A DNA stretch of 64,000 nt from Bacteroidales bacterium (GTDB lineage Bacteria > Bacteroidota > Bacteroidia > Bacteroidales > JAAYJT01), in contig JAAYJT010000029.1 of assembly GCA_012522795.1 (NCBI GenBank), positions 67,525 to 131,524 on the forward strand, read 5' to 3'. Positions within the stretch are counted from its first letter, which is position 1, and the number at the start of each line of letters is the position of its first letter. The notes beneath the pieces were generated by a model that was not told the DNA's origin, ran no database searches, and saw only the letters and a list, made by a program, of their open reading frames with translations. The position numbers and the translations under genes were made by a program. Of this stretch, positions 9,781-57,772 are shown one piece after another.

Positions 9781-9792
9781 TGGGCAGAGAAT

Positions 9793-10527
9793 ATGAAAGA
9801 GTTGCCTGACAATTCTGTTCACTTAATGATTACTTCGCCACCTTACAATGTTTCGAAAGAATATGACGAAGATTTATCACTAAAAGAGCATTTACAACTT
9901 TTAGAAAACTCATTTAAAGAAACATACAGAGTTTTAGTGAACGGTGGACGGGCTTGTATAAATGTAGCCAACCTTTGAAGAAAACCATACATACCAATTT
10001 CTGACTATATTTCCAAAATGATGATAGAAATTGGTTTTAATATGCGTGGAGAAATTATTTGGAATAAGGCAGCAAGTGCAAGTCCATCAACAGCTTGGGG
10101 TAGTTGGCAAAGTGCAGCGAACCCAATTTTAAGAGACATACACGAATATATTTTGGTTTTCTCAAAAGGCGACTATAAAAGGGAAAAAGGAAAAAAAGAA
10201 AATTCCATAACCAAAGAACAGTTTATGGAATGGACAAAATCAATATGGACAATGAACGCAGAAAGTGCAAGAAGAATTGGACACCCTGCACCATTTCCAG
10301 AAGAACTACCTTACAGACTAATTCAACTTTATTCGTTTAAAGGAGACATAATCCTTGACCCTTTTTTGGGAAGCGGAACAACGGCAGTTTCGGCACTTAA
10401 ATCCGAAAGAAAATTTGTAGGATACGACATTTCGCAAGAATATATTGACTTAGCAGAAAGGAGATTAAAACCATTTTTAAAACAGACAAGTCTAAAGTTT
10501 ACGAAAGTTGAAATTGACGAAGAATAA
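9793..10527 (+). pseudogene. Beta-class (SPPY ... FLGSGTT) N4-C/N6-A DNA methyltransferase interrupted by an in-frame TGA at 9976-9978
   Basis: LMITSPPYNV (motif IV) lies N-terminal to ILDPFLGSGTTAV (motif I). ORFs 9793-9978 and 10018-10527 are in the same frame, and codons 9979-10017 (RKPYIPISDYISK) are open. Confidence 0.8.
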
Positions 10528-10878
10528 AACCACTGTCTATAATAATAAGGGCTTAAACTCAATGCATTTTACGGAGTTGCGTTTTAAGTTCCGAAATCTG
10601 TCAGAATTGATCTGAGGCTTCGGCATTGGCAACCAGCAGACAGAATTGCTACCTTCCGTACTGCTATAAGCCCCGACATGTTAGAACAGCACAAAATGTT
10701 TTACGACTTTCATAAAAGAGCTGAACGGCCTTAAGGCCAAATTGATTGCTTTACGAGACCGAAAGTGCAACGCATAATTGAATCGCAGAATTCCCCGCTG
10801 TTTCAATTTTTATTAATCAGCGTTTAAACCAAATTGCTATATTCTGCGTTACATTGTTAAAATTAACATTTATTGATT

Positions 10879-12744: not shown

Positions 12745-12764
12745 TCCTATTTTGAATTCTGAAC

Positions 12765-15737: not shown

Positions 15738-15804
15738 ACTTTGAGTTTTAGAATACAAACCTAAGTTAAAAATGCGAAATTGTATCAAAATGGAAAAATT
15801 TTTG

Positions 15805-15812
15805 TAGTTTTG
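15805..15812 (+). promoter_or_regulatory. Candidate -7 box (TAGTTTTG) for ssrA
   Basis: TAnnTTTG match 18 nt upstream of the mature tmRNA 5' end. Confidence 0.3.
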
Positions 15813-15829
15813 CAACACAATATTCATAT

Positions 15830-16201
15830 GGGGCTGACCGGTTTTGACAGCAAGGAAGTGGTATTGTAAGCATGCCGGGTGTTGTGTGTTTACCCGTTAA
15901 CAACAATGCATACGCCAGAATAAATGGCAACAATTACAATTTCTCGTTAGCTGCTTAATCAAGAAGATTAAGTCGCTTTCTGTTTCCCGCAAAACCTCTC
16001 CAAACGGTGTTGTGGATGAAGCATCGAAAAAGTTTGGATAGAAAAAGTTTTGTTCCGGAGCTTTTTTGAAATAACAGGAACTAAGGATGAAGTAGGTTTG
16101 CCTTTCACTGGCTTTCATCCCTACAAAATATGAAAGGCTAAGCATGTAGAAAGCATTATTGCTGCTTGTTTGGACGAGGGTTCGACTCCCTCCAGCTCCA
16201 C
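15830..16201 (+). ncRNA. ssrA: tmRNA (transfer-messenger RNA)
   Basis: The 5' end GGGGCTGACCGGTTTTGACAGC pairs with the 3' end ...GGACGAGGGTTCGACTCCCTCCAGCTCCAC (T-arm plus acceptor). The internal tag frame reads ...GGC AAC AAT TAC AAT TTC TCG TTA GCT GCT TAA (15926-15958), i.e. GNNYNFSLAA-stop. Confidence 0.9.
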
Positions 16202-16238
16202 TAAAAACAATTAACCGGCTAAAAGTCCCTCCTGCGGC

Positions 16239-16745
16239 TTACACATTGTTTTCAATCTTTTCCAAAGCTATTTTAAACCACACAGTATAATTTTCAGGAT
16301 ATTTTTTTACGTCGCTGAACAATTCTTTCATGTCAATCCATTTCCATTCAGCTACCTCTTCAGTGTTGATTACAGGGTCATCATTATGATAACCAAAAAT
16401 AACATGATCGAATTCATGCTCGGTAAGACCATTATCAAATGGAGCTTTATATATGAATGAAAGTTTCCATTCCAGATCGCAATCGAAGCCCATTTCTTCC
16501 ATAAGGCGACGATGCGCAGCTTCAAGGGTGGTTTCTCCCGGACGGGGATGGCTGCAGCAGGTGTTTGTCCACAATCCCGGAGAATGATATTTATGTAAGG
16601 CACGCCTTTGCAACATAAGCTCGCCTTTGTCATTGAATATAAAAACCGAAAAAGCACGGTGAAGCAAAGCCAGTTCATGTGCCTTAAGTTTTTCCTCCAC
16701 CCCGATTGGGGTATCATCTTTATCAACCAGAATAACTCTTTCCAT
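16239..16745 (-). CDS. idi: Isopentenyl-diphosphate delta-isomerase, type 1 (Nudix)
   Basis: LHRAFSVFIFN...LMLQRRALHKYHSPGLWTNTCCSHP...EEMG pattern. Confidence 0.85.
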   Translation of the reverse strand: MERVILVDKDDTPIGVEEKLKAHELALLHRAFSVFIFNDKGELMLQRRALHKYHSPGLWTNTCCSHPRPGETTLEAAHRRLMEEMGFDCDLEWKLSFIYKAPFDNGLTEHEFDHVIFGYHNDDPVINTEEVAEWKWIDMKELFSDVKKYPENYTVWFKIALEKIENNV

Positions 16746-43626: not shown

Positions 43627-45111
43627 ATGAATCCAACAACGACCCTCATAATTTTTCTGGCTTACACTGCTATTCTTTTCAGCATTGCTTTTATTACTTC
43701 CAGAAAATCAACCAACGAAACCTATTTTGTCGGAAATCGTGCATCGCCCTGGTATGTAGTGGCTTATGGAATGATCGGAGCTTCGCTTTCGGGGGTCACA
43801 TTTATATCTATTCCCGGCGATGTAGGAAATTCATATTTTTCATATATGATGCTGGTTTTCGGCTATTTGCTTGGCTATGCAGTAATTGCACAAGTATTGC
43901 TGCCGCTTTATTATAACCTTAATCTTACCTCAATTTACACCTATCTCGAAAAACGTTTTGGGCTTTCATCATACAAAACAGGAGCATCCTTTTTCCTGCT
44001 ATCCCGTAGTATTGGAGCCTCATTCCGGGTTTATCTTGTTGTAAATGTATTGCATGTGTTTGTATTCGATGCTTGGAATGTTCCGTTCATTGGTACGGTC
44101 ATGCTTTTTATGGGGCTTATAATCCTTTATTCATTCCGGGGAGGAATTAAAACTATAGTCTGGACTGATACCCTGCAGACTACATTTATGATCCTGGCTG
44201 TTCTTTTCACCATCCATCTGATTGGTAATGAAATGAATCTGTCACTCGGCGGATTGATAAAAGCTGCTTCCGAAAGTAAATATTCTCAAATGATTTTTAC
44301 TGACTGGAACCATCGTCATCATTTTCTCAAACAATTTTTTTCCGGTGCATTTATAGCAATTGTAATGACGGGTCTGGATCAGGATATGATGCAAAAAAAC
44401 CTTAGCTGCCGCAATCTGCGTGAGGCACAAAAAAATGTTTATCTGATGAGCTGGTCGCTGGTACTGGTTAATCTTATTTTTCTGTTTCTTGGCATTGTTC
44501 TCTACTTATATGCTGAATCACAGCAAATTGATATCCCTCAGATAACCGATAATCTTTTTCCTCTTATTGCAATTGAGCATCTGGGAGCAAAAGCCGGCAT
44601 ACTCTTTTTCATTGGGCTTATTGCTGCTGCCTTTTCGAGCGCCGATGGTTCTCTTGCTTCTTTAACAACCTCCTTTTATTTCGATATTCTTGGAATTGAT
44701 AAGAACCATAAATTAACTGAGAAACAAAAAACCCGCATCAGAAAAACAACACACATGTCGATTTCGGTAGTATTGATTCTGATGATAATAGTATTCAGGG
44801 CAATCAGCGACCAGTCAGTCATACAGAAACTCTTTACCATAGCCGGTTATACCTACGGACCATTGCTTGGACTATATTCTTTCGGTTTGCTCACAAAATA
44901 TTCAGTAAAGGATAAATGGATACCCCTGATTGCGGTACTTTCTCCGGTTTTATGCTATATAATTAGCTTTAACTCAATGGAGTGGTTCAATGGCTATAAA
45001 TTTGGGTTTGAACTGCTCATACTAAACGGATTATTTACTTTTGCCGGGTTGCTCATAATAAGGAACAAACAAGTAAATAAAGATAGTAAAATTTCAAAAG
45101 AGAAGCACTGA
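43627..45111 (+). CDS. Sodium:solute symporter family transporter
   Basis: 494-aa protein with ~13 TM helices and an SSS-like N-terminus (YFVGNRASPWYVVAYGMIGASLSGVTFISIPG). Confidence 0.8.
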   Translation: MNPTTTLIIFLAYTAILFSIAFITSRKSTNETYFVGNRASPWYVVAYGMIGASLSGVTFISIPGDVGNSYFSYMMLVFGYLLGYAVIAQVLLPLYYNLNLTSIYTYLEKRFGLSSYKTGASFFLLSRSIGASFRVYLVVNVLHVFVFDAWNVPFIGTVMLFMGLIILYSFRGGIKTIVWTDTLQTTFMILAVLFTIHLIGNEMNLSLGGLIKAASESKYSQMIFTDWNHRHHFLKQFFSGAFIAIVMTGLDQDMMQKNLSCRNLREAQKNVYLMSWSLVLVNLIFLFLGIVLYLYAESQQIDIPQITDNLFPLIAIEHLGAKAGILFFIGLIAAAFSSADGSLASLTTSFYFDILGIDKNHKLTEKQKTRIRKTTHMSISVVLILMIIVFRAISDQSVIQKLFTIAGYTYGPLLGLYSFGLLTKYSVKDKWIPLIAVLSPVLCYIISFNSMEWFNGYKFGFELLILNGLFTFAGLLIIRNKQVNKDSKISKEKH

Positions 45112-45240
45112 TGACAGCTTAAAAAAAAGTGGAAATAATAATTTGAGATTTATAAACCAATATTAACTAATAATAACAGAGGAATACTTACATTTGCTTC
45201 CTAAAAAAACAATTATCAGAACTACAAAAATTTCACAATC

Positions 45241-46230
45241 ATGGTAAGTTTACAAACAAATTACATGGGGTTAAAACTCAGGAATCCAATCATTATTGGT
45301 AGTTCGAGCTTAACAAGTGCAGTAGAAAAAGTAAAAGAATTAGAAAAACAGAATGCCGGTGCTGTAGTACTTAAATCCTTGTTTGAAGAGCAAATAAGAT
45401 TTGAGATACATCAGTCAATGCATCAGACTAATTTAAGCGACAGCTATTACCCTGAAGCACATGACTATATAAGCAATTACTCACGCACCCATCATATTGA
45501 TAATTATTTAAAATTAATAAGTGATTGTAAGAAAGCGGTTTCAATGCCTGTAATTGCCAGTATTAATTGTGTAACAGCCGATGAATGGACTGCTTTTGCA
45601 AAACGTATTGAAGATGCAGGCGCTGATGCTCTGGAACTTAATATTTTTATCCTGCCTGCTGATCCAAATATTTCAGGCGAGGAAAATGAAAAAATGTATT
45701 TTGATATCCTCGATCTGGTAAAAAAACAGCTGGATATTCCGGTTGCAATGAAAATCAGTTACCATTTCTCAGGATTAGCCAAAACTGCATTAAAATTTTC
45801 GTGGGCTGGCGCTAATGGAATGGTGTTGTTCAATCGCTTTTATTCGCCAGATATTAATGTGGATAATATGAAAGTTATTCCTGCTCATGTATTCAGCACT
45901 CCTGATGAGATCAGCGTTAGCCTGCGCTGGGTAGCCATGCTTAGCGACCATCTCCATTGCGATATTGCAGCATCAACAGGTATACATGACGGGAAAAGCG
46001 TGGTAAAACAATTACTTGCTGGAGCTAAAGCAGTTCAGATCGCTTCCACCCTCTATATTAACGGACTTGGTCGTATTGACGAAATGCTGAAATATCTGGA
46101 AGAATGGATGGTTAAACATGGCTATAAATCCACTGATGAATTCATTGGTAAACTTAGCCTTAAAAAAACCGAAAATCCTGCTGCCTGGGAAAGAGTACAA
46201 TTTATGAAGCATTTCGCCGGAATAGAATAA
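45241..46230 (+). CDS. Dihydroorotate dehydrogenase-like TIM-barrel flavoprotein
   Basis: MGLKLRNPIIIGSS N-terminus and ALELNI resemble class-1 DHOD/DPD-B-like proteins, with a C-terminal extension. Confidence 0.7.
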   Translation: MVSLQTNYMGLKLRNPIIIGSSSLTSAVEKVKELEKQNAGAVVLKSLFEEQIRFEIHQSMHQTNLSDSYYPEAHDYISNYSRTHHIDNYLKLISDCKKAVSMPVIASINCVTADEWTAFAKRIEDAGADALELNIFILPADPNISGEENEKMYFDILDLVKKQLDIPVAMKISYHFSGLAKTALKFSWAGANGMVLFNRFYSPDINVDNMKVIPAHVFSTPDEISVSLRWVAMLSDHLHCDIAASTGIHDGKSVVKQLLAGAKAVQIASTLYINGLGRIDEMLKYLEEWMVKHGYKSTDEFIGKLSLKKTENPAAWERVQFMKHFAGIE

Positions 46231-46379
46231 TACCGGACCCGGTTTTAAGTAGAATTTCTGTTACAAAAAACTGTATATCTTCAAAACTCTGTTCCTTTTC
46301 TGATTATTCTGCTTGTTATAGCCTCTCTGTTCGGATATATCTTTTTCGGAAAGTGCTGTAACTCAATAAATTTCCTGAC

Positions 46380-47945
46380 CTATACGTCATCAGAAGATCG
46401 CATGAGTCTGACGCTCAGATCAGGATCAGCCATATCCTTGTCAAACGGGAACATCGGGTGTTTAATACGCTTATATTCAAGTCGTTCCAAATCCTGATCA
46501 ACGCCACCGGGAGTAAGAGCCATAATCCAGTCAGCACGCATATCAAAAAGTTCCGGCACCAGATAACCGATTTTTACAACCACTATATCTGTTTCCCTGG
46601 GATTCAGGCCCAAATGGGTAAAATCTTTTTCATAATGATAAGGTTTACGCTTTTTTGTAATTATAACATTAATACTTCCCGTTTGAACCACAACCTCGGT
46701 TTCTGCAGCAAGGTCGCCATGTTCAATTGCTTTTACGACCCCTGACAATTTAATAGGCGGCGAATAACGATCATCTATGACTGCACCTGCCATACCCTCA
46801 ACCTTATTACCTACACCGGCTTCAATGGCTTTTTGAACCAGGTCAGGTCCCGGCAGCGATGCATAGATAAGCGAAGGTCCGTTTTCGTTCTTAAACTCCT
46901 TACGCTTAAGTATTTCAGCAAGGGTCCAGGTTACATCCCCTGCGCCTCCGGCAGTCGGATTATCGCCCATATCGCTGATTATAAAAGGTTGTGCTGTACC
47001 CAAAACAGCTTTATCAAGACATTCGTGCAAAGGTGCAACCGGAGCAACGAATTCAAACTCGTTTCTAACCTTCCAGAATGATGTTGCAAGTTCTTCTGAC
47101 GCACCCGAAACGGCATCCCTGTCATCGCCGGTAACAACTACTGCTCCATGGTTACGTGGCTCGTCAGCCCATGCATAGCCTATCCATATACCGGCATCAA
47201 TAATACCCTTGCGCCTGGTTATAGGCTCAACCTTAGCATACAGGCTCTTTGCCGGTTCAATTCGTGTACTGGTTTTCTCGCCCGGCAACAGAATTGGTAC
47301 AGGAATCCAGGCTTTAAAGGCAGGTTTACCTTTTCCGCTTTCCAATCTGTCAAGCAAATTTTCAAGCGCCCGCTGTTTTGATTCCAAGGCATCATCATGG
47401 GGAGCAAGACGATAACAGGTTATAAGATCAGTATTCTCAACCAGTCTTTCACTAACATTTCCGTGTAAGTCCATAGAAGTTGATATGATTGGTTCTTTTC
47501 CAACCACTTCGCGGATACGGATTATAAAATCTCCTTCAGGGTCATCCAGCCCCACCACACTCATAGCCCCATGAATATCAAAGAAAATACCATCGAAAGG
47601 CATATTTTCCTTTAAAAGCTCAAGAGTTTCATTAACCAGCTTCTCGTAAGCTTCACGAACTACAATACCTCCCGGAATAGCATGACCACGCAGCAGAGGG
47701 AACCAGTGAGCCCTGCCCCTGTCCGCTGAATCGGGCGACATAAAAGGATAATACGTAAAAACATCTTCGCCGCGTCGAACACGGAAAGATTCTTCGTTTG
47801 ACTGAGCCGGTGAGAATGTACTTGATTCTATTGCCAGCCCGCAAATTGCAACACGCGGAAGTTCTTTCGGCTTTTTACCTGACGGCGAACAGGACATTAA
47901 TACTGACAATGTTAGAGCAAGAACTGCAATAGATATTTTTTTCAT
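46380..47945 (-). CDS. M81-family (MlrC-like) metallopeptidase, lipoprotein
   Basis: Lipobox LSVLMSC and an MlrC-like layout (FDGIFFDIHGAM, LAPHDD). Divergent from the first toxin module. Confidence 0.65.
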   Translation of the reverse strand: MKKISIAVLALTLSVLMSCSPSGKKPKELPRVAICGLAIESSTFSPAQSNEESFRVRRGEDVFTYYPFMSPDSADRGRAHWFPLLRGHAIPGGIVVREAYEKLVNETLELLKENMPFDGIFFDIHGAMSVVGLDDPEGDFIIRIREVVGKEPIISTSMDLHGNVSERLVENTDLITCYRLAPHDDALESKQRALENLLDRLESGKGKPAFKAWIPVPILLPGEKTSTRIEPAKSLYAKVEPITRRKGIIDAGIWIGYAWADEPRNHGAVVVTGDDRDAVSGASEELATSFWKVRNEFEFVAPVAPLHECLDKAVLGTAQPFIISDMGDNPTAGGAGDVTWTLAEILKRKEFKNENGPSLIYASLPGPDLVQKAIEAGVGNKVEGMAGAVIDDRYSPPIKLSGVVKAIEHGDLAAETEVVVQTGSINVIITKKRKPYHYEKDFTHLGLNPRETDIVVVKIGYLVPELFDMRADWIMALTPGGVDQDLERLEYKRIKHPMFPFDKDMADPDLSVRLMRSSDDV

Positions 47946-48265
47946 TTTTCTGTGAATTAAAATCTGTATTATCGTTTTTGAATTATCTTCAAGCCTATAA
48001 AATTACTTAATAAACATCTTTAAAACCGGATTTCAGGTAGGATTAGCATCAGCCATTTTAGAAACATCCGTACTGTTCAGCAATTTTCAGCAAAAATAAA
48101 AATATTCCAACAAACCTGAATATGCAGTAAAAGCTAAAAAGTATCTGCAAATGTGCTGAGCTGAAAGCAGAATTGAGAATTGCATACTAAGAAATACATT
48201 CTGAGATCAGACTAAATGTTTGAACAAAAAAACAACTACTAAGCAATACTCAATCCAAAAAAATC

Positions 48266-48273
48266 TATCTTTA
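48266..48273 (+). promoter_or_regulatory. Candidate -7 box (TATCTTTA) of module 1
   Basis: Lies in the conserved leader, 34 nt before the ATG at 48307. One mismatch to TAnnTTTG. Confidence 0.3.
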
Positions 48274-48306
48274 CACAATTAAATCAGGTACTGCCATAGC
48301 GAACCA

Positions 48307-49485
48307 ATGAGCCGGTTGTATTCATATACACGAACTGCTGACTATCTTAGGGTAGAAGACACATATGTGAGTCTGTATAGCTGGGATGATCGCGGCTTTA
48401 CCGGCCATGAGCATTTGTACGCCTTCAACCTGATAAACATGAACGGCCGTAATGGAGCTTATCCCGAATGGCTCTGCTATTTCGGGAATCCCGTGGTTTC
48501 GCGTATGCTCTCACCCGATAATTACATACAAGCACCCGATTTCTCACAGAGTTTTAACAGGTATAGCTATGCATGGAATAATCCGCTAGTGTTTACTGAC
48601 CCGGATGGGGAGTTTATTTTTACAGTACTTGCTGCTATCTTCTGCCCCCCATTATTACCTGTTGCAATTGGAGCAGATATTGGATGGATTTCAGGAGGCA
48701 TCAGAGGAGAAAATACACCCGACATGACTTTTTGGGATGGAGCATGGAGAGGCGGCCTTGTAGGGGCAGTTGGAGGTGGTTTATCCATGATTGGAGGTGC
48801 CGGAATGCCCTTTATAGCCAACCTTGCAATTGGTACCGGCTCAGGAGCTCTTACTGGTGGTCTGGATGCAGCTTTATGGGGTAATGATATTGGAAAAGGC
48901 ATGTTGTGGGGTGCAGCTGCAGGGGCTGTTTTTACAACTATTTTCTCGGAGAATTTTAGTAATATGTTGAAAAGGGAAGGTTTCTATACCAATGAGAATG
49001 TTTTTAATAATATGATTGAGCGAGGAATGGATAAACAGACAATACTTGATTATTTTGGTTTTGAAGGCACATACACAGGTACAACTAAAGGGCCTAGCTA
49101 CGTTGATGGTGGTGGGGAAGGCGCAAGTTTTTTTGGTAGTACGAATTCTCAAACAGGTAATATCAGATATGGAGACCTTGCATTTGATTCCTATGATAAA
49201 TTAAAAATGACCTATAATAAAGAAATGTATCATAGTTTACGCGTTAAAAATGGCATACCATTAGAAACACAAGGAACAGAATTTGGTAAACATTTAAAAT
49301 ATTACCCAGAAGAAAGGTTGGGATTTATCCATGCGTATAAAAACCAAGGCTTGTATCCATCAGCAGGTAAAGGTTTAATGTCAAATATTAGTTTTTATCA
49401 AATGCAGTCTTTTAACCTTAATCCATCGCAGTATTATAGTGCTAAATGGTGGCATTTTATGTATAAAACTCCAAGAAGATGGTAA
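48307..49485 (+). CDS. Mini-Rhs module 1: RHS-associated core tip (to DPDGEF) plus glycine-zipper region plus unknown C-terminal toxin domain
   Basis: GFTGHEHLYAFNLINMNGR...SRMLSPDNYIQAPDFSQSFNRYSYAWNNPLVFTDPDGEF, followed by an unrelated C-terminus. Confidence 0.8.
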   Translation: MSRLYSYTRTADYLRVEDTYVSLYSWDDRGFTGHEHLYAFNLINMNGRNGAYPEWLCYFGNPVVSRMLSPDNYIQAPDFSQSFNRYSYAWNNPLVFTDPDGEFIFTVLAAIFCPPLLPVAIGADIGWISGGIRGENTPDMTFWDGAWRGGLVGAVGGGLSMIGGAGMPFIANLAIGTGSGALTGGLDAALWGNDIGKGMLWGAAAGAVFTTIFSENFSNMLKREGFYTNENVFNNMIERGMDKQTILDYFGFEGTYTGTTKGPSYVDGGGEGASFFGSTNSQTGNIRYGDLAFDSYDKLKMTYNKEMYHSLRVKNGIPLETQGTEFGKHLKYYPEERLGFIHAYKNQGLYPSAGKGLMSNISFYQMQSFNLNPSQYYSAKWWHFMYKTPRRW

Positions 49486-49874
49486 AAATTGTTGCATTGT
49501 TTTGTGTTTTATCTACTAATTTCCTTACTAATGCTCAAGTAGATACTATAAAATGTGAGGAGTCATTTACTTATTTTGATACTTTATTAGGAAAAAATCT
49601 AATTGTTATATGGGAAACTCCTCCCTCATTGAAAGAGTGTTCTCAAAAGTATGTAGATAAGCTTGAGAAATTTGCTAGAAAGCAGATAAACTACGAGTAC
49701 ATCTTAATTGATATGATAATTGATTCTGAAGGTGTTCCAATCTGTTTTAGGTTTAAGCAAGAAATCGAGCAAGTGATTAGGGTTAAGCTTACTGATAAGT
49801 TGAAATTGTTACGTTTTAAACCTGCGTTAATACATGATAAAAGGGTAGAGTCAATTTACACAATAAAAATCTGA
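49479..49874 (+). CDS. Putative immunity/accessory protein 1 (secreted; C-terminus faintly TonB-C-like)
   Basis: ATGGTAA overlap with the toxin stop, signal peptide MVKIVALFCVLSTNFLTNAQ, and C-terminal LRFKPALIHDKRVESIYTIKI. Confidence 0.5.
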   Translation: MVKIVALFCVLSTNFLTNAQVDTIKCEESFTYFDTLLGKNLIVIWETPPSLKECSQKYVDKLEKFARKQINYEYILIDMIIDSEGVPICFRFKQEIEQVIRVKLTDKLKLLRFKPALIHDKRVESIYTIKI

Positions 49875-49876
49875 CA

Positions 49877-49905
49877 AAAGCCGGAGCAATCCGGCTTTTG
49901 TTTTA
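49877..49905 (+). terminator. Rho-independent terminator after module 1
   Basis: AAAAGCCGGA / TCCGGCTTTT stem with a short loop, then TTTT. Confidence 0.7.
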
Positions 49906-50070
49906 TAATGTAGCCACGTTTTCCTGAAAGAATTCCTTAAACATTTTATGACAACATGCGGTGAACTACATCTTGCTCATCAAAGTAAAGACACGAAAAT
50001 TGTTGGCAAAAACTTTAATGAAACGTAAATAAAAGATACTATTTCCAAAATTATCTGAAATACTATTCCT

Positions 50071-50460
50071 CCAAAATCTGAGTTTGTAAAACTTAAAAAA
50101 TTACTCCTAAACAACACACAACCCAAAAAATCATATCTTTGCCTAATTAAATTAGGCAATGCCGTAGAAACAACATATGAGCCGGTTGTATACATATAAA
50201 ATAACTGCTAACTATCTTGAAGCTGCCTCTGTGAGTCTAAATAGCAGGGATGTTAGCGGCTTTACCGGTCACGAGCACTTATACGCTTTCAACCTGATAA
50301 ACATGAACGGCCGCATGTACGATCCCATAATAGGCCGCATGCTCTCGCCCGATAATTACATACAGGCGCCCGATTTTTCGCAGAGTTTTAATAGGTATAG
50401 CTATGCATGGAATAATCCTTTGGTGATGACGGATCCGGATGGGGAGTTTATTCAATACAT
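50071..50460 (+). repeat. Module homology block, copy B1 (leader plus core-tip coding)
   Basis: 50071-50267 differs from 52226-52422 at a single position by eye. Similarity continues with scattered mismatches up to the DPDGEF codons. Confidence 0.85.
50134..50141 (+). promoter_or_regulatory. Candidate -7 box (TATCTTTG) of module 2
   Basis: Perfect TAnnTTTG, 36 nt upstream of the ATG at 50177, inside the conserved non-coding leader. Confidence 0.4.
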
Positions 50461-51376
50461 TTTTGGAGCTATAATTGGCGGATTTAACGGTTATATGATG
50501 GCTGATAATTTAGGTTATAAAGGCTGGAATAAATTCTGGTACACAATAGGAGGAGCGGTTATTGGTTCTGCAACTACAGGAGTGGGGACAGCGGTTACAA
50601 GCTCTACAGGCATTGTTATCGGTGGTGTAGTTGGCGGTGCAGTTAGTGGTACTGGTTTTGGTACTTTGGGGGGATATGCTGCTGGTTTAAGAGGTGGTGA
50701 TTTGTTTAATGCAGGATTTAAAGGAATGTATAGAGGAGCTGTAACCGGAGGAATTGGAAGTATGATTGGTGGTGCCATAGGTGGTGGATGGGGTGCTTTA
50801 GCAGGAGGTGCTACTTCAAATCTAACCGGACAATTGATTTCTAATGATTTTTCATTTAAAGATGTAAACTGGTCATCCGTTGGTGTTAGCGGAGTTACTT
50901 CTTTAGGTGTGTACCATGTTTCATCATATGCTAATTGGAGAAGCAATGTTAAAAACCAGGATTTTTATGGAAGAATTATAAAGTTCAATCAATACCTTAA
51001 AATGCAAGCATCTTACACACGTGGAAAATTTTGGGGGTCTGAACGTGCTGGTGGTGGATTTTGGTTGACAAAAAACGGCATTTCAAAACAAGGTGTTAGC
51101 TATGACTCAAAGCATGGAAATGTTGTAAAATTTGATTTTTCACAAAAGCCAAAGGATGCATGGGCAACTTTTCATCCTCATCCATATAATGAAAATAAAG
51201 TTGTTGGAGGTAATTTATGGCATAGTGATACAGACCTTCAAAATGTTAACACAACACACTTTTCTTCTTTTGTTTTAAATAAACATGGAGCTGAATTAGT
51301 GACACCTATTTCTACACATAGAATTAATTTTTGGAACTATGGCAAGCCATATTATATATATCCATGGACTTGGTAG
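50177..51376 (+). CDS. Mini-Rhs module 2: core tip plus long glycine-zipper region plus C-terminal domain with a JAB-like HPHP...HSDTD motif
   Basis: MSRLYTYK...GFTGHEHL...GRMYDPIIGRMLSPD...NRYSYAWNNPLVMTDPDGEF, then a divergent C-terminus. Confidence 0.8.
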   Translation: MSRLYTYKITANYLEAASVSLNSRDVSGFTGHEHLYAFNLINMNGRMYDPIIGRMLSPDNYIQAPDFSQSFNRYSYAWNNPLVMTDPDGEFIQYIFGAIIGGFNGYMMADNLGYKGWNKFWYTIGGAVIGSATTGVGTAVTSSTGIVIGGVVGGAVSGTGFGTLGGYAAGLRGGDLFNAGFKGMYRGAVTGGIGSMIGGAIGGGWGALAGGATSNLTGQLISNDFSFKDVNWSSVGVSGVTSLGVYHVSSYANWRSNVKNQDFYGRIIKFNQYLKMQASYTRGKFWGSERAGGGFWLTKNGISKQGVSYDSKHGNVVKFDFSQKPKDAWATFHPHPYNENKVVGGNLWHSDTDLQNVNTTHFSSFVLNKHGAELVTPISTHRINFWNYGKPYYIYPWTW

Positions 51377-51398
51377 TTGTCATTCTTGAAAAATTTTT

Positions 51399-52085
51399 AT
51401 GGCGATGCGTATGAAGACAAAACTTGCTATACTAATCTGGAGTAATTTATTAATTATCTGTTTTTCATTGAAAGCACAGGAGAAGCATTGTATGGATAAT
51501 AATAAATTATTTTTTCAAGATAAATATTTTCTTGATACTATAAACCCTCAAGTTGATGGTATAAATAGCGGAAATGAGTTTAATGATAGACGAAAACAGA
51601 TTGCTACTTTTTTAAATTCAAGGTACTCTGAGCAGTTGTTGAGTTTGAGAGAACCTAAGCTATGTCAGGAATACCCTCATGAGGTTTATCGTTTTATATG
51701 GTTCGGATATATATCACAAAAACATAATCCATTTTCTTTAAGAGTAGAGTTTGTTAATGATACCGCTTTTTTATATGTTAAATACATTAATACTAAGAAT
51801 AAGCAGCACCAGAAAGAATTAATAACAGATACGGTTATTTTAAATAAAAAAGATTGGGATATATTTAAAAATAATATAGACAACATAAATTTTTGGAGTA
51901 TCTCCCCAATTGAAAAAACGGAAACGGTTATTATGGATGGCTCTGTTTGGATTCTAGAAGGCAAGAATAATATGTCATATCATATGGTGCATCGAAATTG
52001 TGGCAAACATAAAGAAATAGGGGAACTTTGTTTATATCTACTCGAAAAAAGCAATATCAAAGTAAAAAAGAAGAATCTATATTGA
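51399..52085 (+). CDS. Putative immunity protein 2 (secreted)
   Basis: 22 nt after the toxin stop, with signal peptide MKTKLAILIWSNLLIICFSLKAQ. No known motif. Confidence 0.5.
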   Translation: MAMRMKTKLAILIWSNLLIICFSLKAQEKHCMDNNKLFFQDKYFLDTINPQVDGINSGNEFNDRRKQIATFLNSRYSEQLLSLREPKLCQEYPHEVYRFIWFGYISQKHNPFSLRVEFVNDTAFLYVKYINTKNKQHQKELITDTVILNKKDWDIFKNNIDNINFWSISPIEKTETVIMDGSVWILEGKNNMSYHMVHRNCGKHKEIGELCLYLLEKSNIKVKKKNLY

Positions 52086-52225
52086 GTCCCCTCCGAAAAG
52101 TCGTAAGCCACCGGCCAACTACATCTTGTCCAATTGAGCAAATCTACGGAATTTGCGGTCAAAAACTTTAAAGACACGACAGGATAAAAAAATCTATCAC
52201 CAAAATTGCCTAAAGTACAATTCCC

Positions 52226-52615
52226 CCAAAATCTGAGTTTGTAAAACTTAAAAAATTACTCCTAAACAACACACAACCCAAAAAATCATATCTTTGCCTA
52301 ATTAAATCAGGCAATGCCGTAGAAACAACATATGAGCCGGTTGTATACATATAAAATAACTGCTAACTATCTTGAAGCTGCCTCTGTGAGTCTAAATAGC
52401 AGGGATGTTAGCGGCTTTACCGGCCACGAGCATTTGTACGCCTTCAACCTGATAAACATGAACGGCAGGATGTATGATCCCGTGGTTTCGCGTATGCTCT
52501 CACCGGATAATTACATGCAGGCGCCCGATTTTTCACAGAGTTTTAACAGGTATAGCTATGCATGGAATAATCCGTTAGTGTATACTGACCCGGATGGAGA
52601 GTTTATCTTTACGAC
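52226..52615 (+). repeat. Module homology block, copy B2
   Basis: Direct repeat of 50071-50460 at an offset of 2155 nt. Confidence 0.85.
52289..52296 (+). promoter_or_regulatory. Candidate -7 box (TATCTTTG) of module 3
   Basis: Same position in the repeat as 50134-50141. Confidence 0.4.
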
Positions 52616-53501
52616 ACTTGCTATTATAACTGGTCAATGGTGGGCTTTGCCTATGACAATTGGCGCTGATATTGGAATGTGGCAAGGTGGTTTACTTGCA
52701 AACGGAACAATGAATCCCTTTAAGTGGGATTACAGTTCTGGTAAGACTTGGGGCTATATGGCGAGCGGTATGGTTGTCGGTGCAGCAAGCGGATATTTTG
52801 GCGGAGCAGTTGCCGCATCGGGTATGCCAATGGCTAATACTGCGGGGATTGCAAGTGCTTCGTTTGTAAATAGTGTGGGTACGCACATTTACACAGGCGG
52901 GCAAACGGATGTGAGCATTAGTTTTGGTGTAGCTTCATACAATTTTGACCAAAACGAATGGGGATATTTAGGTAAGAAAGGAAACCCCACACTTGAAAAT
53001 ATTGGATATAGTTTTGGTGCTTTGGCGAACTTAGGAGATTTTGTTTCTTTATTTAGTGGTGGCGGGCAAAATGTTAAAGTCAATTCTGCGAGTACAAAAG
53101 ATGGAAACGAATGGTGGGGACACAGTTCTATAACTGACGAAAATGGCCACTCATTAGTTTCAGTCGGTCCAGACGGTCAAGTTCAAAAATCCGCAAGTTT
53201 ATCAGAAACTTGGCAAAACTCTATTAAAGTTGCAGATACGGATTGGAGTACATACTTAGGAAAAAAAGGAACTTGGTCAGTAGAGATGAATAACGTCAGC
53301 GCAACAGCCATAAGTAAATATGCGTCAGGTGTAAGTCGGTGGGATTTGCTTCTTAACAGTTGTGTGGGGCATACTTCAAGGGCTTTATGGACAGCGGGAA
53401 TCCCAAATGTATATGCGTTTCATCCACACATGTTAAATCTTCAATTAGCAATCAGGCAAATAGGGATTTATTCAAGTCCGTATCTTTATCAAATGCGATA
53501 A
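52332..53501 (+). CDS. Mini-Rhs module 3: core tip plus glycine-rich hydrophobic region plus C-terminal domain with His...Cys (WWGHSS ... NSCVGHTS) motifs
   Basis: The N-terminal ~95 aa are near-identical to module 2, the motif reads PLVYTDPDGEF, and the C-terminus is unrelated. Confidence 0.8.
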   Translation: MSRLYTYKITANYLEAASVSLNSRDVSGFTGHEHLYAFNLINMNGRMYDPVVSRMLSPDNYMQAPDFSQSFNRYSYAWNNPLVYTDPDGEFIFTTLAIITGQWWALPMTIGADIGMWQGGLLANGTMNPFKWDYSSGKTWGYMASGMVVGAASGYFGGAVAASGMPMANTAGIASASFVNSVGTHIYTGGQTDVSISFGVASYNFDQNEWGYLGKKGNPTLENIGYSFGALANLGDFVSLFSGGGQNVKVNSASTKDGNEWWGHSSITDENGHSLVSVGPDGQVQKSASLSETWQNSIKVADTDWSTYLGKKGTWSVEMNNVSATAISKYASGVSRWDLLLNSCVGHTSRALWTAGIPNVYAFHPHMLNLQLAIRQIGIYSSPYLYQMR

Positions 53502-53512
53502 ATAACGAGATT

Positions 53513-53956
53513 ATGAAACACTTAGTAATAACAATTATGTTACTTTCAACAATGGGTTCATTCGGACAAATACGAAATTTCAACGACATTCCGAATGATA
53601 TTTTGGAGCAGTTAGGCAAAATGGGAGTTGATGCTTCGTCTTTATTGAATAATTACGAAGCTGCGTACTTAAATGTCATTTTCAAAGACAGTTTAAAAGG
53701 ATTTGATTTGACAGGAAAAAAAGTAGGGTTTATTTATAGCGGTGCAAAGAGCGATAAACAAGAATACTTTAACCAAGTCAAAGATAGATACCATAGTAAT
53801 AGTACGCCTGTTGGTGGTAGTGGTTTGTATATTTTCGATGCTGCTCAAAAAGCGGAAAGTGGCGGATATGATGCTGCCATTGTCTATTGGAGTAAATTTG
53901 TAATACCCATTGATAAAGTAGTCAAAAAATTAAAAACACAGATGAGCAAAAAATGA
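53513..53956 (+). CDS. Putative immunity protein 3 (secreted)
   Basis: The ATG lies 11 nt after the toxin stop, with signal peptide MKHLVITIMLLSTMGSFGQ. The ORF-track start at 53360 overlaps the toxin and is rejected. Confidence 0.5.
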   Translation: MKHLVITIMLLSTMGSFGQIRNFNDIPNDILEQLGKMGVDASSLLNNYEAAYLNVIFKDSLKGFDLTGKKVGFIYSGAKSDKQEYFNQVKDRYHSNSTPVGGSGLYIFDAAQKAESGGYDAAIVYWSKFVIPIDKVVKKLKTQMSKK

Positions 53957-53984
53957 GTGGCGAAGCCACCCCATTTGAATTTTA

Positions 53985-54010
53985 AAAAGCGGCTTTGCCG
54001 CTTTTTTTGT
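53985..54010 (+). terminator. Rho-independent terminator after module 3
   Basis: AAAAAGCGGC-TTT-GCCGCTTTTT followed by TTT. Confidence 0.7.
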
Positions 54011-54401
54011 TCCGTTTTCAAGGCTTCCAAAGGTCGTTTTCAGAAAAGTTATTAACAATAGCCAAGAATCGGCTGTAAGCCTTGTTTCCTTCTGACTTAT
54101 CCATCTCTTAAAAGCTATTTCTTTATATGTAAGCAAGCGGTGAACTACATCTTTTTCAAAAAAAAAGCTCATTATTTGTAACTCACCATCTATCAACATC
54201 ATACCTAGCAAAGCAAAAGCTATGGAATTAGCGGACAAAAATCCCTTACACACTTTTCTGAACATTCCTATATTTAAAATCAGAAATCTAAAATTAAATC
54301 TGAGTTTGCTAAACTTTATAAAATTCAGAACATGAATCATTCAATATTTATTTTATTAGCCTAAAAAATTACTACTAAGCAACTCTCAACCCAAAAAATC
54401 C

Positions 54402-54409
54402 TATCTTTA
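54402..54409 (+). promoter_or_regulatory. Candidate -7 box (TATCTTTA) of module 4
   Basis: Same leader subtype as module 1 (ACTACTAAGCAA...CCAAAAAATC-TATCTTTAC). Confidence 0.3.
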
Positions 54410-54444
54410 CCCTATTAAATCAGGCTATGCAAGAGCGAAAACAA

Positions 54445-54864
54445 ATGAGCCGGTTGTATACATATAAAATAACTGCTAACTATCTTGAAGCTGCCTCTGT
54501 GAGTCTAAATAGCAGGGATGTTAGCGGCTTTACCGGTCACGAGCCTTTGTACGCCTTCAACCTGATAAATATGAACGGTCGTAATGGAGTTAATCCCGAA
54601 TGGCTCTGCTATTTCGGGAACCCCATGGTTTCGCGCATGCTCTCACCGGATAATTACATACAGGCACCGGATTTCTCCCAATCATTCAACCGATATCCCT
54701 ATTGTATGAACAACCCTATTAACCTGGTTGACAAAAGCGGGTATTACTGGTTGGATTATGATTATGATTGGAATGAATTTTATGAAAATTATCTTTATGA
54801 ATATCATAGAGGTGATGAATATCCCGCAGTACCAAGAGCAAAATACTTTTATTTACGATTATAG
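54445..54864 (+). CDS. Mini-Rhs module 4: core tip with variant end motif (NNPINLVDKSGYY) and only a ~40-aa Tyr/Asp-rich tail; possibly degenerate
   Basis: 54445-54543 is identical to 50177-50275, followed by the long-insert variant seen in module 1. An alternative upstream ATG lies at 54427. Confidence 0.6.
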   Translation: MSRLYTYKITANYLEAASVSLNSRDVSGFTGHEPLYAFNLINMNGRNGVNPEWLCYFGNPMVSRMLSPDNYIQAPDFSQSFNRYPYCMNNPINLVDKSGYYWLDYDYDWNEFYENYLYEYHRGDEYPAVPRAKYFYLRL

Positions 54865-55087
54865 AATAAATAATTTGGAATAAAAAAATTAATACTTATT
54901 TTTCTAAAACTAACCAAAACCTTAAATCTATGAAGAATCATATTTTAAACTTATCTGCAGCAACATTTATTGAAAGCAATGCTGATGACGATGTTTCAAC
55001 ATCTTATTATGTCATTAAGCATATTCCACAAATTACTTATAGGAAACGTATGTTAGAATGTACCGAACCCTTTATTATACCTGAAAG

Positions 55088-56569
55088 ATGAAAAAAATAA
55101 TTTTCTTACTAATTCTTTTTTTTCAATTAGTAAATTGCCTGAAAGCACAAGTTAATACTTTTAGCTTTTTGTATAAATCGCGCCTAAACAAAGTAAGCCT
55201 TATACCAGTTGAAGATAGTGACAATAATTACATTGTGCCGATGATATTATTTACCGGAAAACCCTGGGCACCAAGCGATATGGATAGAGCTTTTCTGATG
55301 AAATTAACTCCAAAGGGTGATACAAGCTGCTATTACTATACAATACCCGATAGTGCTTTCAGTTTTCAAAATATTATAAAAACTTCTGATGATGGTTATC
55401 TGGTTGCCGGAGCATCAAAAGCTATTATTACCAGAGATTCAGTAAATTTGCTGCTGATTAAGTTGAACAATAAGTTTGAGATTGAATGGAAAAAGCATTA
55501 TTATCTTTACGGGAATTGGGAGATGGGTATCACAAAAATATTTCCATTAGATGACAATGACTTTATTCTTGCCGGAATGGTAACTAAGTTTCCAAGTATT
55601 TTTATTTATCCGTACCTGGTACGTATTGACCAATATGGGAATATTACCCGTGAAACAATTTATAATTCTTATTGCGGCTCTAGATATGAATATCTATTAA
55701 ATTCATCTAAAACCAGAATACTGATGTTTGCTAATGGTTTGCCGCCACATAGTAATGGTTTATCAGTTACAATATTTGATACTACTTTTACTTATTTAAG
55801 CAGCCATGTTTTACCTGTTTTAGGCATAGGAGTAGGTGGCAACCCATTTCATGCAAAATGGCTGAATGACACTAATTTCATTTTCTCCTATCAGAAAAGA
55901 TTAGTAGGTTCACCATTCGATGATAAAGAGTTTACAATTCAAATCCATGACACATTGTTCAATTTACTGCAATTTGATCAATTTGGCTTACCCGACTCAT
56001 ACGATTGTCCGGCATGGGTCAAAGGTTTTGATTTTAGACATCCCGATACTATTTTTTATGCTGCTAATATTGGTCTTGCCTTTGGCCCACCTCCTTCAGG
56101 TTATACAAACTGGTTTATGATAAGGCAAACTGATGGACAACTAAATGAAAGATACAGGCATTTTTATGGTGGCGACTCATTCTATTTTGTAGACCATATC
56201 ATTGCAACATCTGATGGAGGGTGCTTTGTTGGTAGTAGAAAATTCGACTTTGGTACCGGTAATTTCGAATTATTGTTTCTAAAACTCAACAGCGATGGTA
56301 TGCTTGTAGGCACAAACGATCCCGATATACAACAGCGAATGTCGCTGTTATACCCTAACCCTGCCTACCAAGAAGTTGTACTGGAAACCTATCTTGATGA
56401 ATCCACCATTAAGATATTTGATGTTAACGGCAGGACAGTTGGACAATACAGTGGGGTTAAGGGTAAGAACGCCATCAACCTGAACGGGCTTCCGGCAGGT
56501 GTATATGTATTATCGCTTTATGCGAAAGAAAAATTTATTGAAAACTATAAGTTTATTAAAAAACCATAA
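55088..56569 (+). CDS. Secreted protein with T9SS type-A C-terminal sorting domain
   Basis: Signal peptide, and a C-terminus LLYPNPAYQEVVLE...IKIFDVNGRTV...LPAGVYVLSL typical of Por_Secre_tail. The body has DGGY/LVAG-type propeller-like repeats. Confidence 0.75.
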   Translation: MKKIIFLLILFFQLVNCLKAQVNTFSFLYKSRLNKVSLIPVEDSDNNYIVPMILFTGKPWAPSDMDRAFLMKLTPKGDTSCYYYTIPDSAFSFQNIIKTSDDGYLVAGASKAIITRDSVNLLLIKLNNKFEIEWKKHYYLYGNWEMGITKIFPLDDNDFILAGMVTKFPSIFIYPYLVRIDQYGNITRETIYNSYCGSRYEYLLNSSKTRILMFANGLPPHSNGLSVTIFDTTFTYLSSHVLPVLGIGVGGNPFHAKWLNDTNFIFSYQKRLVGSPFDDKEFTIQIHDTLFNLLQFDQFGLPDSYDCPAWVKGFDFRHPDTIFYAANIGLAFGPPPSGYTNWFMIRQTDGQLNERYRHFYGGDSFYFVDHIIATSDGGCFVGSRKFDFGTGNFELLFLKLNSDGMLVGTNDPDIQQRMSLLYPNPAYQEVVLETYLDESTIKIFDVNGRTVGQYSGVKGKNAINLNGLPAGVYVLSLYAKEKFIENYKFIKKP

Positions 56570-56581
56570 AACTTTACGATT

Positions 56582-57772
56582 ATGAAAATCAAATTTATTC
56601 TTTTTTGTAGTATAACTTTAATGATATTAGGCACAACACAGCATTTACCCGCACAGGAAATTTGCTCCACTTGCCCGGGAAATGAAGTAAGCGGCATTCA
56701 ATCTTCTGCATTCGGACTTAGTAATATTGTCGGTGCAAATTATTCTTTTGTTGCGGGTCGCGAATCAGTTATTAATCAAGGAAGTCATCATGGCAACATA
56801 ATTGGTAGTAATTCTACAATAGATGGCGGCTTTCATTCTATTGTTATTGGAAGCTCTTCATCAGCTACAAATGATTGTTCCTTTGTTTTTGGGCCTTATT
56901 CAAAAGCCAGCGGTTATTTTTCATTTGCATTAGGTGCATATGTTGAAGCACGGTTTCGTGGCTCATTTATTATAGGAAACAGTGCTGACACAACAAGATT
57001 TATCAACAACATACCCAACAGCCTAATGATAGGATTTGGAAGCACATTGCCAACGCTTTTTGTTGAAAAGGCACCTTTTTCATTAGATCACAACCGAACA
57101 GGTCGTATCGGTATAGGCAATGTCACCGCCCCGCAGGCAAAGCTACATATCAGAGCAGATCAGTATGAGGATGCAAGTATCCTGCTTGAGGCAACCGGTA
57201 GCAATAAAAGAAGTAGTATTTTAATGGCAGGCGGTCAAGCTGTTATTGGCACTGTTTCACAAAATCATTCTTTATCGTTTGTAACCGGCACAAGCAACAC
57301 ACGTATGTTTATCAATGCTGAAAGCGGGAATATTGGTGTGGGTAATGAAGAGCCTGTTGCCAAACTTCAGGTTAAGGATGGCGATATTTTTATTGAAGAC
57401 ATCAACAGAGGTATTATCATGAAATCGCCTGATGGCCGTTGCTGGCGTGGTATGATGAATAATTTTGGTCAGCTTGAGTTTACAGAAATACCGGATTGTA
57501 TCATTTCTTCTACAAATGCTCAGACGCTTCAGCCGGGTTTAGGTGTTACTATTAGTCCTAATCCGGTAAGCGATCGTTTGGAAGTTGAGTGCCGCTTGAT
57601 TGGTACCGAAGCTCGTTTGATTAACCTTTCTGGCACTGAGATTTCTTCGCATCCGCTACAGCAGGGAGCCTCTTTTATTCCGGTACATGATTTAAAACCG
57701 GGCATGTATCTGTTAAACATTGTAATGAAAGGTAAAGGAGTGGTTGAAACACATAAATTTGTGAAGCAATAA
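56582..57772 (+). CDS. Secreted tail-fibre/beta-helix-like protein with T9SS C-terminal sorting domain
   Basis: Repetitive Ser/Gly/Ala-rich strands (SAFGLSNIVGANYSFVAGRES...) and GIGNVTAPQAKLHI / GVGNEEPVAKLQV motifs. C-terminus ISPNPVSDRLEVE...LKPGMYLLNI. Confidence 0.7.
   Translation: MKIKFILFCSITLMILGTTQHLPAQEICSTCPGNEVSGIQSSAFGLSNIVGANYSFVAGRESVINQGSHHGNIIGSNSTIDGGFHSIVIGSSSSATNDCSFVFGPYSKASGYFSFALGAYVEARFRGSFIIGNSADTTRFINNIPNSLMIGFGSTLPTLFVEKAPFSLDHNRTGRIGIGNVTAPQAKLHIRADQYEDASILLEATGSNKRSSILMAGGQAVIGTVSQNHSLSFVTGTSNTRMFINAESGNIGVGNEEPVAKLQVKDGDIFIEDINRGIIMKSPDGRCWRGMMNNFGQLEFTEIPDCIISSTNAQTLQPGLGVTISPNPVSDRLEVECRLIGTEARLINLSGTEISSHPLQQGASFIPVHDLKPGMYLLNIVMKGKGVVETHKFVKQ

Follow-up and report, generated by a model that had tools for sequence, protein, structure and literature searches.

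An array of probable orphan Rhs cassettes, each behind a conserved leader and start codon, in a Bacteroidales genome

How are the immunity genes of orphan toxin cassettes expressed, and why do such cassettes persist? Orphan toxin-immunity cassettes are usually treated as spare parts that have neither a promoter nor a start codon. Both questions are raised by a stretch of 64,000 nucleotides (nt) from a Bacteroidales bacterium (GenBank assembly GCA_012522795.1, contig JAAYJT010000029.1, positions 67,525 to 131,524), hereafter the window, in which four open reading frames (ORFs) on the forward strand each open with MSRLY(S/T)Y, continue as a stretch of Rhs core, and then diverge into different C termini. 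An earlier, sequence-only reading took these four modules either for independently acting short toxins or for an archive of spare tips. We conclude that the region is very probably an orphan cassette array of a TcdB/TcaC-type RHS system and that the four mini-Rhs genes are probably not free-standing toxins. With less assurance, we favor an account in which the orphan cassettes are substrates for recombination and are transcribed from their own leaders mainly so that their immunity genes are expressed.

The modules and the Rhs core block

All four modules carry GFTGHE(H/P)LYAFNLINMNGR...SRMLSPDNY(I/M)QAPDFSQSFNRY. The features of the cleavage motif, SPDNY...TDPDGEF, are present in modules 1 to 3, where the common part ends at TDPDGEF; module 4 has a degenerate VDKSGYY at that point. 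Beyond the core lie a glycine-rich hydrophobic stretch, an unrelated tip, and then a small gene. The ORFs and motifs confirmed the shared start, common core, and divergent tips that had been noticed from the letters, and profile searches agreed that the modules join the C-terminal part of an Rhs core to polymorphic tips. TIGR03696 (Rhs_assc_core; curated cut-off, 32.5 bits) matched all four modules, two of them above the cut-off. Modules 2 and 3 scored 52.2 and 49.8 bits over profile positions 14 to 75 of 76. Modules 1 and 4, which matched positions 38 to 75 only, stayed below threshold (26.8 and 30.2 bits) because NGxxPEWLCYFGNP stands in place of MYDP. Pfam gave no matches in the modules, including none to RHS_repeat, SpvB, FG-GAP, the C-terminal domain (CTD) of type IX secretion system (T9SS) cargo (PF18962), or a secretion domain.

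The part shared with full-length Rhs proteins is short. When three full-length proteins were used as tblastn queries, only their last 70 to 100 amino acids (aa) aligned with the modules. Protein homology begins at about codon 28 of each module and nowhere else in the window, and the Rhs core portion comes to about 65 aa. DNA homology with full-length rhs genes is likewise confined to a 195-nt core block, with 84 to 96% identity. Identity to rhs genes of related metagenome-assembled genomes (MAGs) is 84 to 92%, and the core of module 2 reaches 95.9% over 194 nt against the full-length rhs gene of a sister strain, locus L038. From related assemblies, we gathered 20 to 21 distinct module copies. 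Thirteen of 20 distinct modules, including modules 1 and 4 of the window, have an insertion-variant core with NG(V/A)(Y/N)PEWLCYFGNP for MYDP, a variant that was not seen in the approximately 110 full-length Rhs cores inspected.

Modules and full-length genes occur together. In Bacteroidales bin 114, in the MAG Bact_23, and in a Lentimicrobiaceae MAG, long or full-length rhs genes coexist with MSRLY modules and have the core block in common with them. The full-length partners are about 2,100 aa long and contain a signal peptide, SpvB, FG-GAP/VCBS, TcdB_toxin_midN, and RHS repeats, a domain composition that places them in the TcdB/TcaC-type polymorphic toxin class (Zhang et al. 2012, PMC3482391).

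Related tip sequences also occur in both contexts, on full-length Rhs genes and on MSRLY modules. The tip of module 3 is homologous over its full length to that of L016, a long, 5'-cut Rhs ORF of at least 855 aa from Bact_23. The two share 58.6% aa identity (residues 469 to 852 of the L016 protein, rhs16), aligned to the protein end, and 87% nt identity over 651 nt. In the same way, the tip of the L013 rhs gene is related to those of the L015 and L011 modules, and the tip of P0131, the L038 RHS protein, is related to that of the L018 module.

Recombination between the repeated blocks adds or removes cassettes. A natural variant, L020 (ENA ERZ27280797, k141_618878), lacks exactly cassette 2, that is, the tip and its immunity gene (2.15 kb). 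Comparison of L020 with window positions 50452 to 52116 placed the crossover inside the repeated leader and 5' block, so these blocks recombine in nature. Together, the 95.9% identity of the L038 core, the tips found in both contexts, and the loss in L020 fit the second option of the sequence-only reading, a promoter-equipped archive for recombination with an rhs gene.

Much of this organization is known. Orphan modules of Salmonella recombine with the main rhs gene, as has been shown experimentally (Koskiniemi et al. 2014, PMC3967940), orphan immunity genes are expressed (Poole et al. 2011, PMC3150448), and TcdB/TcaC-type RHS polymorphic toxins have standalone toxin cassettes (PMC3482391); both this kind of array and its parent system class are therefore already described. 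Like the enterobacterial rhs-CT/rhsI and cdiA-CT/cdiI orphans, the array consists of tandem, same-strand units of core fragment, variable tip, and immunity gene. Also as in those systems, the units have a block in common with a full-length gene (here that of a sister strain, 195 nt at 96%; in Salmonella, 522 bp at 95%), and cassettes turn over by homologous recombination. The resemblance to TcdB/TcaC-type systems and to the BC cocoons of Tc toxins lies in the domains of the full-length partners, the order of toxin and then immunity gene, and the occurrence of cassette arrays. Unlike full-length TcdB/TcaC-type toxins, the window holds cassettes only, with no YD/RHS cage or N-terminal trafficking region. 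What is new is the conserved 5' unit, a family trait in at least 20 copies. The array also departs from textbook orphans in the terminators between cassettes and, in this strain, in having no adjacent cage gene.

A cage gene at the same locus in a sister strain

As the sequence-only reading had stated, the window contains no shell gene, a statement that applies to these 64 kb. The tblastn searches with three full-length Rhs proteins hit only the four cores, and Pfam found no RHS repeats in the 10 longest ORFs of the window, which had unrelated domains or no domain. A misassembly masking an rhs gene upstream of the array was ruled out. The junction between the M81 peptidase gene and module 1 was found in five independent assemblies, one of them a 134-kb contig; the downstream end of the array also lies within a 205-kb contig.

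Related sequences revealed where a cage gene can stand. Positions 1 to 3911 of L038 correspond to window positions 44305 to 48215 (blastn, 96.0% identity), so that the M81 flank is 96% identical as far as 48215, and positions 6174 to 8392 correspond to 54956 to 57174 (96.4%). These flanks identify L038 as a sister strain at the same chromosomal locus. In L038, the island that holds the array is replaced by 2.26 kb with three other small genes. The order there is M81, the three small genes, a T9SS gene (the same 493-aa gene as in the window), a YadA-head-like gene (561 aa), a T9SS-CTD gene (143 aa), the RHS gene (P0131, 2116 aa), two small genes, and a leader with an MSWLY start. The RHS gene has an SpvB/FG-GAP/RHS architecture and a Tlde1-like tip, and the second small gene downstream of it has a weak Tai4 match. 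Because L038 has a full-length rhs gene at the same locus, the lack of a shell gene in the window reflects a structural difference between strains and does not characterize the module family as such. The leader-bearing module of L038 holds the classical orphan position, downstream of the full-length gene; the window array, unlike enterobacterial orphans, lies between M81 and T9SS genes instead.

Other traces of rearrangement were seen at the edges of these loci. The leader-bearing module of L038 (17744 to 17895) is interrupted after codon 10 by an inserted element with the beginning of a transposase-like ORF (MNLINFMDQFPDEESCKLKFKAM), at which point the contig stops. In the window, a 53-aa ORF at 54930 to 55091, before the T9SS gene, resembles a deletion remnant of a 353-aa gene of L038 (5248 to 6309): window positions 54834 to 54952 match L038 5153 to 5270, and homology picks up again at L038 6174. 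The locus thus exists in three states in nearly identical strains, with a cage gene, without one, and minus one cassette, which makes it a natural experiment.

The conserved 5' unit and its possible functions

What distinguishes the modules from enterobacterial orphans is the DNA in front of the core. Where those orphans have a shell stub, the modules have a conserved leader that contains a promoter-like box and is followed by an invariant ATG and about 27 unrelated codons. They thus carry putative initiation signals of their own, which orphan modules usually lack, although that lack is no strict criterion. The four window copies share a block of 300 to 400 nt (73 to 93% identity) that includes about 80 nt of non-coding leader. 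Across the 20 to 21 copies, conservation runs for about 400 nt, from approximately 85 nt upstream of the ATG through the DPDG codons. The 5' unit proper comprises the roughly 85-nt leader with an invariant TATCTTT, the invariant ATG, and some 27 module-specific codons, and it joins the 195-nt core block at one identical, sharp junction in all copies. This single junction points to one ancestral fusion of 5' unit and core that later spread and acquired many tips.

The claim that each module has its own ATG behind a promoter-like box held in all copies, with a small correction to the distance. In the window, a TATCTTT(A/G) box, collectively written TATCTTTN, starts 41 to 43 nt before each ATG, and its 3' end lies 33 to 35 nt upstream of the ATG rather than 34 to 36. 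Among metagenomes, 13 of 13 true leader matches have an ATG 40 to 43 nt after the start of the box. Bayley and colleagues are said to have given TAnnTTTG in 2000 as the -7 promoter consensus of Bacteroidetes, and the leader box matches this consensus. The distance is also typical of promoters in this genome: a TAnnTTT(G/A) box lies 30 to 60 nt upstream of the start in 13 of the window's 41 other genes, compared with about 2 expected by chance.

Patterns of variation locate the start of the reading frame. The ATG is invariant in 20 of 20 distinct copies, and in-frame stops lie 4 to 32 codons upstream of it. Indels of 1, 2, or 3 nt mark the leader as non-coding; from the ATG on they are 6 or 30 nt long, and frame conservation therefore starts at that ATG. 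The N-terminal 28 codons, in contrast, evolve almost neutrally at the protein level, with codon-position diversities of 0.144, 0.109, and 0.081, a ratio of nonsynonymous to synonymous polymorphism (pN/pS) of 0.73, and no third-position excess. The corresponding values in the adjacent core are 0.094, 0.079, and 0.234, with a pN/pS of 0.21. The 5' unit is nonetheless less variable than adjacent synonymous sites of the core (pS of 0.14 versus 0.38). A near-neutral peptide behind an invariant ATG argues that initiation may matter here, and not the peptide.

Other explanations of the 5' unit were tried and set aside. Local alignment of the unit to the 330 nt that precede the core in three full-length genes gave scores equal to those of shuffled controls (z of about 0), so it is not recognizable as decayed shell-coding DNA, and a by-eye resemblance of MSRLY...SLYSRD to a YD-repeat remnant could not be substantiated. 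No structured RNA was detected in the leader and start region, where minimum free energy z-scores of -0.7 to +1.3 in 21 copies showed no excess over shuffled sequence. Rfam had no leader match and only two sub-threshold chance matches, both outside the leaders. Matches in a sigma-70 promoter scan were no commoner than in shuffled sequence, and that model is unsuited to this phylum.

The small genes downstream of modules 1 to 3 are putative immunity genes, assigned as such from their position and from the N termini of their products. All three products have signal-peptide-like N termini, judged by eye, with Gln at +1 (ending A|Q or G|Q); the first reads MVKIVALFCVLSTNFLTNA|Q. Some of the small downstream genes in related loci have lipoprotein-type N termini.

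We propose that the 5' unit would give each cassette a separate start of transcription, about 27 to 31 nt upstream of the ATG, as well as one of translation. Strong terminator-like hairpins follow cassettes 1 and 3 (Table 1). Because these isolate the two cassettes, the intact immunity genes would need a local promoter; enterobacterial orphans, in comparison, are transcribed by read-through from the main gene. With a start of its own, a cassette, and above all its predicted exported immunity protein, would be expressed in the main gene's absence. Translation of the toxin ORF would keep ribosomes on the transcript up to the overlapping or closely spaced immunity gene, avoiding polarity, and would be harmless with a toxin that has no export signal and whose target is likely in the cell envelope. 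Such a target is implied by the predicted export of the immunity partner, and the Tlde1-like tip and weak Tai4-like partner of the sister strain are consistent with it. The tip would become a weapon only once recombination through the core block had transferred it to a full-length RHS cage. We only slightly favor the view that the leader drives expression chiefly for the sake of immunity. If the leader is active, it would offer a simple solution to the expression problem, making each cassette a self-sufficient immunity operon that is still a tip donor. One cassette lineage with the same leader, box, and start codon is found in at least 20 copies in several anaerobic-digester Bacteroidales.

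Decayed cassettes bear on this proposal. Of the roughly 20 known modules, about one-third have been truncated or disrupted, and two of these keep an intact downstream gene. A truncated 120-aa module stands with an intact 146-aa lipoprotein gene in L001/L002 and in L014 (the same 120-aa allele occurs in L036), and in L017 a leader with a 33-codon stub directly precedes a 212-aa signal-peptide gene. The toxin can be lost from a decaying cassette that retains its leader and downstream gene, a pattern that supports immunity expression as the function kept.

A comparable kind of array is known from the same order. The rAID-1 systems (Ross et al. 2019, bioRxiv 10.1101/471110) are Bacteroidales arrays that have repetitive intergenic sequences and are likely beneficial because they express orphan immunity genes. 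They differ in their defining 5' XerD-like recombinase and in consisting of immunity genes. The units described here keep the toxin ORF and core block and have no flanking recombinase: none was present among the genes called on L019 within 10 kb on each side of the array.

Several points weigh against our account. The promoter and the start codon were both called from sequence alone. The box is no more conserved than neighboring leader positions, its invariance could be hitch-hiking in a repeat homogenized by gene conversion, and the leaders have no -33 TTTG element at the expected spacing. The missing coding signature in the N-terminal codons fits an untranslated sequence equally well. Insertion-variant modules may be unusable as donors or nonfunctional in a cage. 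The search for a full-length rhs gene covered the 64-kb window. Finally, the array lies upstream of the T9SS genes, where a simple deletion fusion with a downstream rhs gene would remove the shell, so that gene conversion or duplication would be needed to re-arm a cage.

Some of these points also fit a silent archive, the best of the alternatives and still an unlikely one in our view. On this view the cassettes would be unexpressed, and the leader, ATG, and 27 codons would form a spacer without function, its uniformity maintained by gene conversion. Such a spacer may act as the 3' homology arm when cassettes are exchanged, since a next leader follows each of them, the one behind the full-length gene of L038 included. 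The pN/pS of the N-terminal codons, the unexceptional conservation of the box, the lack of a -33 element, the many decayed modules, and the block recombination seen in L020 are all compatible with such a spacer. Other features are harder to reconcile with it. The 5' unit persists with an identical junction in at least 20 copies from at least five MAGs or assemblies whose flanks cannot be aligned, and its low diversity relative to adjacent synonymous sites, the frame-preserving indels that begin exactly at the invariant ATG, and the promoter-like distance of the box also count against a spacer. In addition, the terminators between cassettes would leave intact immunity genes unexpressed.

A second alternative is that the short toxin is made inside the producer and neutralized by its immunity protein, in the manner of a toxin-antitoxin or selfish system that stabilizes the cassette or modulates growth. 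There is a precedent in Salmonella Typhimurium, where rhs has internal promoters 89 nt upstream of the core motif and toxic Rhs-CT is translated from main and orphan genes (Starsta et al. 2020, PMC7043789). As in that "type II TA-like" Rhs-CT/RhsI arrangement, the proposed start in the modules lies just upstream of the core motif and is independent of the shell; a dedicated promoter-like box and ATG precede the core, and the toxin and immunity genes are tightly linked or overlapping. In Salmonella, however, the promoter is inside the rhs coding sequence, translation begins at a weak CTG, and the toxin encounters its immunity protein in the cytoplasm, whereas the modules have a separate non-coding leader, an ATG, and presumed immunity proteins that would be exported. 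Three presumed immunity proteins with signal-peptide-like N termini would not meet a cytoplasmic toxin, and the lipoprotein-type immunity genes and Tlde1/Tai4-like domains of related loci point to a periplasmic target. Toxins are often truncated, and at least twice the downstream gene has been kept, whereas addiction would predict the opposite. We therefore regard internal expression of this kind as improbable.

We give about the same low probability to the 5' unit being a portable expression cassette for mini-Rhs proteins with a function of their own. By analogy with TcB and TcC, these proteins may be loaded in trans into, or processed by, a separate RHS cage, as a split Rhs; alternatively, they may co-operate with the adjacent T9SS-secreted propeller and YadA-like proteins. 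The related idea of autonomous shell-less or trans-loaded toxins, with the core stub as a plug and cleavage module, was the first option of the sequence-only reading. It draws on the intact ORFs of 286 to 416 aa in about 13 modules, on both aspartates kept in the core autoprotease motif region (SPD...DPDGE), on modules of relatives that stand directly behind T9SS gene pairs where other loci have an RHS gene of full length, and on the established assembly of TcB and TcC cages from two polypeptides (PMC11067744). It is the least probable of the readings, because the modules, as had been noted, have no signal peptide or T9SS CTD; they also have no Pfam secretion domain, their N termini are hydrophilic, the near-neutral N-terminal peptide is an unlikely targeting signal, about one-third of modules are truncated, most module cores carry an insertion unseen in full-length proteins, and the 65-aa stub is exactly and only the recombination block common with full-length genes. 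Moreover, export is predicted for the presumed immunity proteins, whereas the modules carry no signal for it.

Layout, neighboring genes, and tips

Coordinates of the features are given in Table 1. The upstream neighbor had been described as a divergent M81 peptidase gene across an AT-rich spacer, which agrees with the Pfam matches and with a spacer of 361 nt and 30.5% GC. The longest ORF of module 4 begins at 54427, upstream of the conserved ATG, and the protein is identical to homologue P0002. Profile searches found no family match for the product of immunity gene 2. A 136-aa antisense ORF (53930 to 54340, minus strand) extends over the terminator and the distal part of the leader between cassettes 3 and 4. 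It was considered as a divergent regulator and rejected: it has no Pfam match, the protein is not conserved beyond this strain, and it is probably spurious and not a gene.

Table 1. Features of the cassette array and its flanks, in window coordinates
Feature	Position	Strand	Description	Basis
M81/MlrC-type peptidase gene	46380..47945	-	Conserved left flank, outside the system	PF07364, PF07171
Strain-variable island	48216..54955	+	Contains the entire cassette array	blastn of L038 versus window
Leader 1	48227..48306	+	Non-coding; TATCTTTA box at 48266-48273, 41 nt before ATG	
Module 1	48307..49485	+	392 aa; about 27 module-specific codons, core block 48387-48615 with insertion variant 48451-48492, Gly-rich hydrophobic region, unique tip	
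Putative immunity gene 1	49479..49874	+	131 aa; start overlaps module 1 stop	Position
Terminator-like hairpin	49875..49906	+	Intrinsic type with T tract, directly 3' of immunity gene 1	
Leader 2	49944..50176	+	Distal and proximal parts; TATCTTTG box at 50134-50141, 43 nt before ATG	
Module 2	50177..51376	+	399 aa; core block 50256-50449	
Putative immunity gene 2	51399..52085	+	228 aa; signal-peptide-like N terminus	
Leader 3	52100..52331	+	TATCTTTG box at 52289-52296	
Module 3	52332..53501	+	389 aa; core block 52411-52604	
Putative immunity gene 3	53510..53956	+	147-148 aa; signal-peptide-like N terminus	Precomputed annotation DUF8192
Terminator-like hairpin	53985..54009	+	Intrinsic type with T tract, 3' of immunity gene 3	
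Leader 4	54296..54444	+	TATCTTTA box at 54402-54409	
Module 4	54445..54864	+	Degenerate, 139 aa; core block 54524-54680 with insertion variant 54589-54630, DKSGY for DPDGE, short tip, no immunity gene	
T9SS-CTD protein gene	55088..56569	+	493 aa	PF18962
YadA-head-like protein gene	56582..57772	+	396 aa; short form with its own T9SS CTD	

The sequence-only reading had remarked that T9SS cargo genes follow the array directly. The two genes after the array are indeed adjacent and have CTDs, but they matter in another way: in this clade, T9SS genes belong to the conserved make-up of the full-length RHS locus. Homologues of the 493-aa protein are the first gene of a set that in relatives precedes full-length SpvB-FG-GAP-RHS genes: a T9SS-CTD protein of about 490 to 540 aa, a YadA-head-like protein, and a 143- to 150-aa protein with a signal peptide, one YD-repeat-like motif (FEYDxxGNR), and a T9SS CTD. 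Synteny of the set was seen in L038 (positions 6306 to 16351), L013, L018, L001, and L017. The short YadA-like form of the window matches residues 1 to 255 of the 561-aa L038 form with 69% aa identity and the short form of L001 and L017 with 85 to 86% nt identity. This short form with a CTD precedes MSRLY modules or nothing, and not an RHS gene. The gene set may indicate a T9SS link to the export or display of these RHS toxins. The locus ties Bacteroidota TcdB/TcaC-type RHS toxins to T9SS genes.

The activity of the tips was not evident from searches: for three tips, Pfam gave no match even at an E value of 1 or less. By sequence, the closest solved structures in the PDB were those of the mosquito salivary proteins SGS1 and SGS4 (Rhs/Tc-like), which matched module residues of about 29 to 167, that is, the core and the subsequent Gly-rich hydrophobic segment only, and none matched the tips. 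The module 3 tip family (window 52899 to 53498) has invariant Asp47, His75, and Cys155. Its members occur widely across Bacteroidota, Porphyromonas gingivalis among them, as short proteins annotated as hypothetical. The tip of module 3 gave a confident AlphaFold model (pLDDT, 87.5; pTM, 0.80), for which Foldseek retrieved no PDB match at an E value of 0.001 or less, and the family has no Pfam model. The family may represent an uncharacterized Cys/His hydrolase toxin fold.

Protein searches with such short queries listed only matches shorter than about 1.8 times the query, and their length distributions are accordingly uninformative on how often these tips occur in full-length proteins. In other Bacteroidota, many orphan fragments with a module 3-type tip are annotated from the core Met of INMNGR (MNGRxYDP...), as in homologues P0255, P0259, P0260, P0263, P0291, P0304, P0321, and P0323. 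Rhs-core ORFs that seem to start by themselves are thus common among gene calls.

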